Shown piece after piece: positions 21,500 through 21,704 of a stretch of DNA of 24,267 nucleotides. Source of the stretch: a virus (taxonomy: Duplodnaviria > Caudoviricetes). The stretch is taken from positions 1 through 24,267 of IMG/VR virus record IMGVR_UViG_3300020043_006355; one strand, given 5' to 3'. Position 1 is the first letter of the stretch, and each line of letters opens with the position of its first letter. A program made the translations under genes and the position numbers. Under the pieces are notes generated by a model. That model was not told where the DNA came from. It was given only the letters and a program-made list of their open reading frames with translations, and ran no database searches.

Positions 21500-21704
21500 T
21501 AGAGGAAACAGGACTCGAACCTGTAACGGTTTTATAAACTCAACACGCCATACTTTTAGCATGGTTTTGGTTAAACATCACCGTAAAGCAATAGGCCTTT
21601 TAGTTAATTAAGTGTTTCAAATCTTTCGCGGGTGATCAGTCCGTTAATCGAATTCATTTTTGCCTGTCAAACCACTTGCGTCTTACCAATTCCGCCATTC
21701 CCCT
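21500..21704 (-). ncRNA. tRNA-like RNA (205 nt) with Leu-type D arm, G3.U70 acceptor stem and long insert replacing the anticodon arm
   Basis: Acceptor AGGGGAA/TTCCTCT plus A73; TGGCGGAATTGGTAAGACGC D arm; ACAGG-TTCGAGT-CCTGT T arm; insert closed by AGTGGTTT/AAACCGTT; no encoded CCA. Confidence 0.75.

Follow-up and report, generated by a model that had tools for sequence, protein, structure and literature searches.

We found that the element under study appears to be a phage gene for an anticodon-less, tRNA-shaped RNA with a tmRNA fragment in its middle, which, after processing by the host, would act as a decoy for tRNA-binding proteins (a reading to which we give a probability of around 0.4). 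Very probably it belongs to a family of phage 'tRNA shells', defined in this analysis as RNAs with a tRNA frame, near-constant ends and swappable middles. The membership of this very large family was missed in the first-pass annotation of the sequence, and three traits put forward there, alanine identity, the tmRNA-like motif GGTTTGAC and a helix that closes the middle, are not general within the family.

The window, i.e. the whole stretch of DNA that was analyzed, is a virus record of 24,267 bases, and the element is located on its minus strand, which also carries the head, portal and terminase genes. On basis of sequence and fold, the whole shell RNA gene extends over 21499..21704 (minus strand, like all parts of the element given below) and comprises 205 nt to A73, plus C74. 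The 5' strand of the acceptor stem (21698..21704, with A1, G2, G3 and G4) was assigned from the sequence, and the 3' strand (21499..21507, with U70, the discriminator A73 at 21500 and C74 at 21499) from the sequence and the 3' ends of the family; CCA is not encoded after A73. Together they form seven pairs (21704-21698 / 21507-21501) including G3·U70, with pair probabilities of 0.68-0.98. Next to the acceptor there is a Leu-type D arm (21678..21697; U8, A14, A15, G18G19 and a 3-bp stem), which is found letter-for-letter in other shells and the stem of which has a predicted probability of ~0.15 when unconstrained; at the other end there is a T arm (21508..21524) with a stem as in the family. 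The acceptor, Leu-type D arm, T arm, G3·U70 and A73 that had been reported earlier are all there in the sequence, and for the acceptor and T stems the prediction is good. The arms frame a middle of 153 nt that lacks an anticodon. An RNase P site is predicted directly before 21704, with U-1 and A-2, in line with the leader preference of the family, and cleavage would be expected at that point.

The core elements of tRNA-Leu, A73, U8-A14, G18-U55 and G19-C56, are present (determinants taken from PMC2377443), and two other tRNA-Leu traits, the anticodon arm with a 5-bp stem and 7-nt loop and the oriented variable arm, are absent from the element. LeuRS requires A73, the elbow and the way in which the variable arm is oriented, and can do without the anticodon arm (PMC2377443). 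At the level of sequence the proposed alanine identity stands: the bacterial determinants in the acceptor stem are A73, G2-C71, G3·U70 and G4-C69 (PMC9976931), and the acceptor of the window holds these four, though not G20. G3·U70 was found in none of the 120 parsed elements of the family and, among 102 non-canonical shells, only in the element of the window. It is possible that the alanine acceptor arose by chance, being one change away from a tRNA-Pro acceptor. The tRNA-Pro in question (L201, 9687-9760, minus-strand numbering) has an acceptor 5' strand identical to that of the element and a 3' strand that is one base off.

Comparison with the family made clear that the D arm, the T stem, A1-U72, A73, C74, A15 with U48 and U-1 are common to both. 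The acceptor of the window differs from the commonest family acceptor at 5/7 pairs, and acceptors of their own are also found in other long members (L120, two in L213, and L066). Judged by these letters, the element is to be placed outside the core group of the shell family, as a variant with respect to its acceptor. Two other resemblances were observed within the middle. A T-loop-like heptamer occurs at 21652-21632, where a tRNA of normal length would have its T arm, with a 13/21 match to the 3' block of the family (p 0.025, one of four tests); an origin of the long middles by tandem fusion was considered and rejected, as 0/36 long shells share this match of the window. At 21639-21624 a CTGATCA is followed five bases on by GAAA, which is reminiscent of a hammerhead core, with a C at the position of the conserved G8, no stem II and no match in Rfam.

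The family was recovered with two kinds of search. A search with the D arm only yielded 24 viral loci, at most of which an acceptor, D arm and T arm frame a non-canonical middle; for only 2 of the 24 did ARAGORN report a tRNA at that place. A search with the T arm and 3' end yielded 129 loci from 5/64 parts of the viral collection, which by extrapolation amounts to ~1,700 viral stretches. In all, 144 matches were collected, of which 123 could be parsed and 21 were dropped, leaving 120 distinct elements. In 116/120 of these the acceptor is at most 2 letters away from the commonest one, with lengths of 54-191 nt, although this set may include a few ordinary tRNAs. A canonical anticodon arm was found in 0/57 elements with a Leu-type D arm. 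The middles are very diverse: the 98 elements longer than 80 nt fall into 84 clusters, 72 of which are singletons with a middle that has no relative in the sample. Between 1 and 11 copies were present in each of 10 records picked for size or for several matches, and a reversed control pattern gave 0. Most shells are found within tRNA clusters and, in the two arrays that were read fully, they alternate with ordinary tRNA genes. An ORF start is located within 60 nt after 54/109 shells, compared to 28/112 ordinary tRNAs. ARAGORN made a call on 28/116 shells, with 22 different labels on what is nearly one acceptor stem. Finally, a scan with a pattern that does not cover the element of the window itself returned tandem tRNAs and a few more shells.

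A 2021 vibriophage study reportedly describes intron-like tRNA genes that remain unspliced, which could narrow the novelty of the shell family. Among cultured phages we found short tRNA-arm matches only and no whole shell, and in the literature searched (mostly non-subscription) there was no description of a multi-copy shell family in phages. The available parts of PMC4810235 and PMC13219725 contain nothing on such a family, and in that of PMC7609411, a review of non-canonical tRNAs, the word 'phage' is absent. Two groups of shells have a more particular arrangement. In L213 (5684-6579, minus-strand numbering) a real phage tmRNA with a long, AA-ending tag is followed by two shells of 207 and 198 nt around a tRNA-Pro; the ends of the two are similar and may form the same kind of pairing. 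Furthermore, a subfamily of 125 nt adjoins tRNA-Arg(UCU) in L033, L041, L043, L048, L049, L051, L052 and L054. Its members carry, where the anticodon would be, a compensated hairpin with a loop of 7 nt, together with a very large variable region, and might still be decoding.

The conservation within the shells speaks for selection on the shape of a tRNA. U8 is kept in 112/116 and A14 plus the GG of the D loop in 99/116, and positions 15/48 are A/U in 88/102 and G/C in 5/102 (Fisher p 1e-5, kinship not corrected). In the leader, U-1 was found for 100/116 shells versus 75/112 ordinary tRNAs of the same loci and A-2 for 84/116 versus 61/112. Bacterial RNase P prefers these bases, and the contact between the D and T arms guides its cut (PMC4919922). 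The CCA is encoded in 5/116; A73 and C74 were fixed by one of the search patterns, yet they are dominant in the independent D-arm set too. Judged from these alignments, selection on the RNA is indicated by the covarying 15-48 pair and by the leader bases that RNase P prefers. The middles are weakly structured (mean z -0.69, n = 52), which is compatible with drift too. Nevertheless, compensatory changes were found for 4/6 pairs of one hairpin across 7 related sequences, and within 12 ortholog groups there were 5 compensated pairs versus 1.7 ± 1.3 expected (p 0.03), 3 of them from one pair; the distribution of such changes is patchy.

On basis of this anatomy, the following sequence of events may be proposed. 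The element, which is covered by contigs of RNA libraries, would be co-transcribed with the upstream genes, and host RNase P would cut before 21704, after which 3' trimming and the CCA enzyme would finish the 3' end. The acceptor, T and D arms would then build a tRNA elbow, and AlaRS might be able to charge the member present in the window. Lacking an anticodon loop, the RNA would neither decode nor be cut at the site of anticodon nucleases, and could bind host proteins that recognise the elbow or the CCA end and thereby titrate them; candidate targets are defence nucleases or toxins, synthetases, EF-Tu and quality-control factors. We prefer a decoy because the shells are present many times over, with an acceptor that hardly varies and middles that are free, among real tRNAs that already supply punctuation. 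The decoy step itself is argued from anatomy, and some of the data speak against it: the weakly structured middles fit drift, a close relative (L006) does without the element, and shells precede an ORF twice as often as tRNAs do, which favours punctuation. Extending the decoy reading to the family as a whole, phages might run natural tRNA-scaffold cassettes, processed and protected by enzymes of the host and present in up to eleven copies per genome, that capture and diversify RNA fragments as a decoy library, a proposal that we make tentatively. Equally speculative is the corollary that such a library is aimed at the tRNA-reading defence and ribosome-rescue proteins of the host, with the window as a capture caught while a piece of tmRNA and an alanine acceptor can still be made out. 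An anticodon-less decoy and a tRNA-processed carrier, both of which had been offered earlier next to a tmRNA-like function, are compatible with the shell family.

The genomic context bears on the first alternative. The element is located between a YopX-family operon (YopX-family gene and a 58-aa ORF, 21793..22325, minus strand, upstream) and the likely small terminase (90 aa, 21130..21402, minus strand, downstream), which was assigned by position only, as it has no family match; the shell sits 97 bases ahead of its start codon. The terminase large subunit maps to 19902..21158 (minus strand). A GC-rich hairpin of 11 bp (21709..21736, minus strand, -22.8 kcal/mol) ends 4 nt before the shell and, after cleavage, would cap the upstream mRNA. 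With respect to the 58-aa ORF, 4 bases are missing at 21816-21817 of the window when compared to L004, L026 and two RNA contigs, which alters its end (66 aa in L004). None of the proteins scanned in the window (20 and 16) matched a tRNA- or tmRNA-related protein family. The host of the phage is likely a member of the Bacteroidota, because the capsid protein, when compared to cultured phages, matches mainly Bacteroides phages (22/28 matching records, 29% identity). A search with the terminase in species genomes recovered 5 distant Bacillota loci and no Bacteroidota or host genome, so that the comparison with tmRNAs from the host side was limited to one record (L273).

Twenty of the 24 sequencing runs contain the stretch or part of it, 5 of them being RNA, and all four RNA runs examined cover the element, with no joint inside; this evidence consists of unstranded contigs from runs that were picked with this stretch, and thus speaks to neither ends nor level. 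The RNA contigs begin upstream of the predicted cut (21720, 21766 and 22305) and one of them spans both ends of the element. Three end at 21506, 21513 and 21538, near the 3' end of the element, which is a weak hint at most. Contigs of the capsid region of the same phage are present in the same RNA libraries. The longest and deepest of the contigs in these libraries are found at the capsid-protease region (8680-12748), which is suggestive of active infection in the samples.

It could be that the shell is a processing mark, excised by RNase P and 3' nucleases so that the upstream operon is separated from the terminase genes, with the hairpin shielding the upstream mRNA and the middle as free, drifting cargo. 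This is unlikely in our view, but several observations agree with it, namely the location with the YopX operon on one side and the packaging genes on the other, the 11-bp hairpin just before the predicted cut, the enrichment of U-1 and A-2 and the frequent ORF starts after shells, and precedents are given by the t-elements and mascRNA (PMC4919922). At the same time, many shells are found inside tRNA arrays that are punctuated already by real tRNAs, hairpins as strong as the one upstream are rare in the family (14/114 leaders reach -10), and L006 has the same packaging genes without the element. Moreover, an acceptor of near-constant sequence goes beyond what RNase P is known to require.

A comparison of related contigs relates to a second alternative. 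The 206 bases of the gene are identical in three other contigs (L002/L004, L003/L005 and L026), and because of this the element is not an assembly artefact. Pattern scans for diverged orthologues returned identical copies and chance matches in coding DNA only (identical 2/2, 2/4 and 1/3 loci). There are 0 differences between L004 and the window over the 294 bases of element and leader, versus 16 over 1,131 upstream bases, and the identity breaks just past C74. At that point (window 21490-21498) L004 carries ~50 extra bases, including an A-rich/U-rich hairpin, and the 3' end of the shell coincides with a mosaic boundary between the two, the packaging genes being ~80% alike and the upstream genes ~98.6%. 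The element is absent from L006, a close relative with a terminase that is 91% identical.

The shell might thus be a neutral or selfish relic, in which repeated tRNA ends spread, are homogenised by recombination and trap the DNA between them (here the piece of a phage tmRNA), the RNA being of no use to the phage. The middles, which are mostly unrelated and weakly structured, the decay of the tmRNA-like part without compensation, the break that resembles a recombination point and the optional presence among relatives are all in line with this. Nevertheless, we consider it rather unlikely, as the covarying 15-48 pair and the leader bases argue for selection on the RNA, and the compensatory changes in some of the middles (4/6 pairs in the one hairpin) do so as well. 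The lack of differences to L004 within the element (0/294 versus 16/1,131) is a weak argument in the same direction, and recent exchange explains it equally.

Sequence comparison also bears on the origin of the middle of the element. The tmRNAs used for comparison were taken from large viral records (2/5 and 19/48, i.e. 21/53) and two named Bacteroidota records. Genes for tmRNA are common in these large phages (L250-L270), and several of them encode long tags (L250, L251) or are only 269-317 nt in length (L255, L257). Over its first ~75 bases, the middle can be aligned in register to the 5' part of Bacteroidota-type tmRNAs, with 51/75 identical positions for the best of these (L250), and the alignment to tmRNA nt 11-85 begins at the fourth base of the middle. 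Against nt 11-85 of 21 tmRNAs (two near-duplicates excluded) p is ~0.001 for the mean as well as the maximum score in 1,500 shuffles, a lenient null; the bounds of the segment were set with an initial alignment at hand, and some other bounds are weaker (p 0.015-0.07). The pseudoknot region alone gave p 0.01-0.03. The reverse strand of the middle yielded nothing against these tmRNAs, and its 3' part did not match tmRNA 3' ends (p 0.53 and 0.09). The score was reached by 0/1,196 other windows of the phage, and of 20 control shells 1 was at p<=0.01 on the mean and 2 on the maximum, though none was as strong as the element. In a profile test, 2/51 control middles scored as high. A profile of 33 mostly Bacillota tmRNAs gave p 0.22 on the middle, in a test of low power with weak positive controls. 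The motif GGTTTGAC is found in the sequence at 21673-21666, behind the D arm as reported earlier, and GG-TTYGAC at this place occurs in 0/57 other shells. Based on these alignments, the 5' middle probably descends from a tmRNA gene, the 5' part of which (D-loop motif, helix-2 strand and pseudoknot-1 region) would be represented in likely decayed form, with broken pairings, at 21601..21674. The description as a tRNA/tmRNA chimera is therefore probably right by descent (the alignment of ~75 bases), though not in the sense of a working tmRNA.

Several parts that a tmRNA needs have been lost. In the register of L250, helix 2a retains 0/4 pairs, versus 4, 4 and 3 of 4 in three tmRNAs, and pseudoknot 1 retains 1/4 pairs in stem 1 and 3/5 in stem 2. 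The connector before the T stem is GTT and that of 20/23 tmRNAs GAC; position 1 is an A (A1-U72) versus G1 in 33/33 and 23/23 tmRNAs (sets that share L250 and L251); and the GG D-loop motif is located at nt 32, behind an added Leu-type D stem, versus nt 11-12 in 22/23 tmRNAs. In tmRNA, SmpB takes the place that the absent anticodon arm would occupy (PMC4131195), and for that reason the altered geometry of D stem and motif matters.

These findings weigh on the idea of a tmRNA antagonist, i.e. an alanyl-acceptor mimic that would titrate SmpB or AlaRS and so damp trans-translation, like the TLD-only RNA of phage DS6A. The tmRNA ancestry and the full alanine set of the acceptor support such a role, and the similar TLD-only molecule strongly inhibits tmRNA, perhaps via titration of SmpB (PMC4131195). 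We nevertheless regard it as improbable for the element, as the parts that constitute the SmpB site are altered (helix 2a 0/4, GTT connector, GG motif at nt 32, added D stem).

A natural carrier that stabilises a functional cargo, be it an antisense RNA, an aptamer or a small peptide, would have the anatomy of the engineered tRNA scaffolds and would agree with the compensated helices in some of the family middles, yet it is quite improbable in case of the window. The middle folds like its shuffles, and a search of the rest of the window, the loci retrieved, phages and plasmids gave no significant match to it. As a whole, too, the RNA has a fold that is no better than that of shuffles (z 0.13). 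The 8-bp helix (21676-21669 / 21532-21525) that was thought to close the middle can be drawn, and 8 bp are matched by only 1.9% of shuffles. Its probability in the predicted ensemble, however, is at most 2.4%, it is 3.7 kcal/mol above the best fold, and its first pair takes the base (21525) that is U48, the partner of A15, in the family. As a family trait the helix is not enriched (3.6 versus 3.4 bp, n = 47; 2/82 at p<=0.05), and a scan of the collection for the closing helix with the GGTTTGAC motif returned 1 real locus among 6 matches. This is a shell in L202 (11603-11741), in which GGTTTGAC and the 8-base partner strand of the window recur, only 22 nt apart, and which differs from the element in having another acceptor and an encoded CCA. 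A hairpin of 7 bp in the 3' part of the middle (CCATGCT/AGTATGG, 21564-21548) was rightly noted before and is predicted with a probability of ~0.74. The CTGATCA that was placed in a hairpin loop is present in the sequence (21639-21633), but the minimum-energy fold leaves it unpaired and outside any hairpin loop.

A peptide cargo is not indicated either. The ATG ORF of 17 codons (21604..21657) and the GKNEFD-stop frame (21664-21644) proposed for the middle are both in the sequence, but the former is a product of chance and not counted functional, because an ORF of this length or longer occurs in 35% of shuffled middles; within the family, 2/20 long middles have such an ORF versus 1.8 expected.

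The first-pass annotation favoured a mini-tmRNA that adds a short, non-degron tag. G3·U70 and the tmRNA-like 5' segment in register agree with it, and size is no bar, as a 202-bp Carsonella tmRNA is cited in PMC4131195. Considering the sequence, however, it is very improbable that the element is a working tmRNA. The tmRNA helices are broken (pseudoknot-1 stem 1 1/4, helix 2a 0/4), the RNA starts with A1, and there is no tag or resume context: none of the three translated frames ends in AA, as 30/33 tmRNAs do by script count, and GKNEFD would resume at nt 41 versus nt 89-96 in 31/33 tmRNAs. ARAGORN in default mode made no call on the element, and Rfam gave no tmRNA match (E<=5 for the window and E<=10 for a stretch of 321 nt), while tmRNA positive controls scored and 21/53 large viral records gave clear tmRNA calls.

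Least credible is the reading in which the element is a normal tRNA gene, interrupted by an intron or by a recent insertion, that is spliced or dead. ARAGORN in intron mode can be forced to a call (tRNA-Pyl, 109-nt intron), and one could see in the ends of the middle the two halves of an anticodon arm. The forced model, however, is distorted, and if the sequence enclosed by the 8-bp helix is taken out, there is no variable loop ahead of the T stem. Furthermore, the RNA contigs (which drop rare forms) have no splice joint, Rfam gave no intron match, and no uninterrupted allele was present among the pattern matches.

The tRNA clusters of phages are taken to be sets of decoding tRNAs. Of the genes in the arrays studied here, a sizeable share consists of anticodon-less shells, which tRNA finders miss or mislabel. 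Should the shells be decoys, as we prefer, they would constitute an abundant and overlooked class of RNA counter-defence, and provide a model, open to testing, for long-standing puzzles such as the stable RNAs of T4. The member in the window is the best handle on the origin of the middles, because a probable source of its middle, tmRNA, can be named. Were the shells no more than processing marks or relics, annotation would still have to take account of the family, as would the arguments on codon usage that are derived from phage tRNA counts.

The element shares features with several known systems. With tmRNA (RF00023; L250, L272 of Cellulophaga phage Calle_1 and L273 of a Phocaeicola record) it has in common G3·U70, A73, G2-C71 and G4-C69, the D-loop motif followed by ~65 bases in register, the T arm and the lack of an anticodon. 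It differs in length (205 nt versus 269-495), in A1-U72, in the Leu-type D stem before the motif and in a 3' middle that is not tmRNA-like (p 0.5), and it lacks helix 2a, the connector, the pseudoknot-1 stem and an AA-ending tag. The TLD-only tmRNA of mycobacteriophage DS6A is likewise phage-borne, tmRNA-derived and shortened, and titration rather than tagging was proposed for it (PMC4131195). By its description, to which our comparison is confined, that RNA consists of little beyond the tRNA-like domain, whereas the element has a decayed 5' body in a tRNA frame, plus a D stem; the element does not have an intact tRNA-like domain of the DS6A type, its TLD geometry being altered, and the TLD sequence was not found in bases 30000-60588 of the DS6A record. 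RnaC and RnaD of T4 (species 1 and 2) are small phage RNAs that derive from a tRNA region and are described as being of unknown role (PMC9697503, PMC3014915), and RnaC ends in a T arm and an acceptor-like strand, as shells do. These two, however, lack a Leu-type D arm and shared ends, occur in a single copy each and are 139 and 119 nt in length, and the available parts of PMC9697503 and PMC3014915 report no family with variable middles.

In the engineered tRNA scaffolds the acceptor, D and T arms are kept, an insert replaces the anticodon stem-loop, and the RNA is processed by the host and stable in E. coli (PMC3753655); these are artificial and have a designed closing stem, whereas the shells are natural and multi-copy and have no general closing helix. 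Allo-tRNAs and the polycistrons of irregular tRNAs also have non-canonical shapes, and some are charged but not used in translation, but in the allo-tRNAs an anticodon arm is retained and the stems are 8/4 or 9/3, in contrast to the 7/5 stems of the shells, which lack a canonical anticodon arm (PMC5389517). The t-elements and mascRNA, finally, are non-canonical tRNA shapes that serve as processing marks, and differ in being eukaryotic or organellar and short (PMC4919922). The element resembles the non-decoding tRNA mimics of phages, yet it is a member of none of the groups it was tested against: tmRNA, tRNA-Leu and TLD-only RNA.
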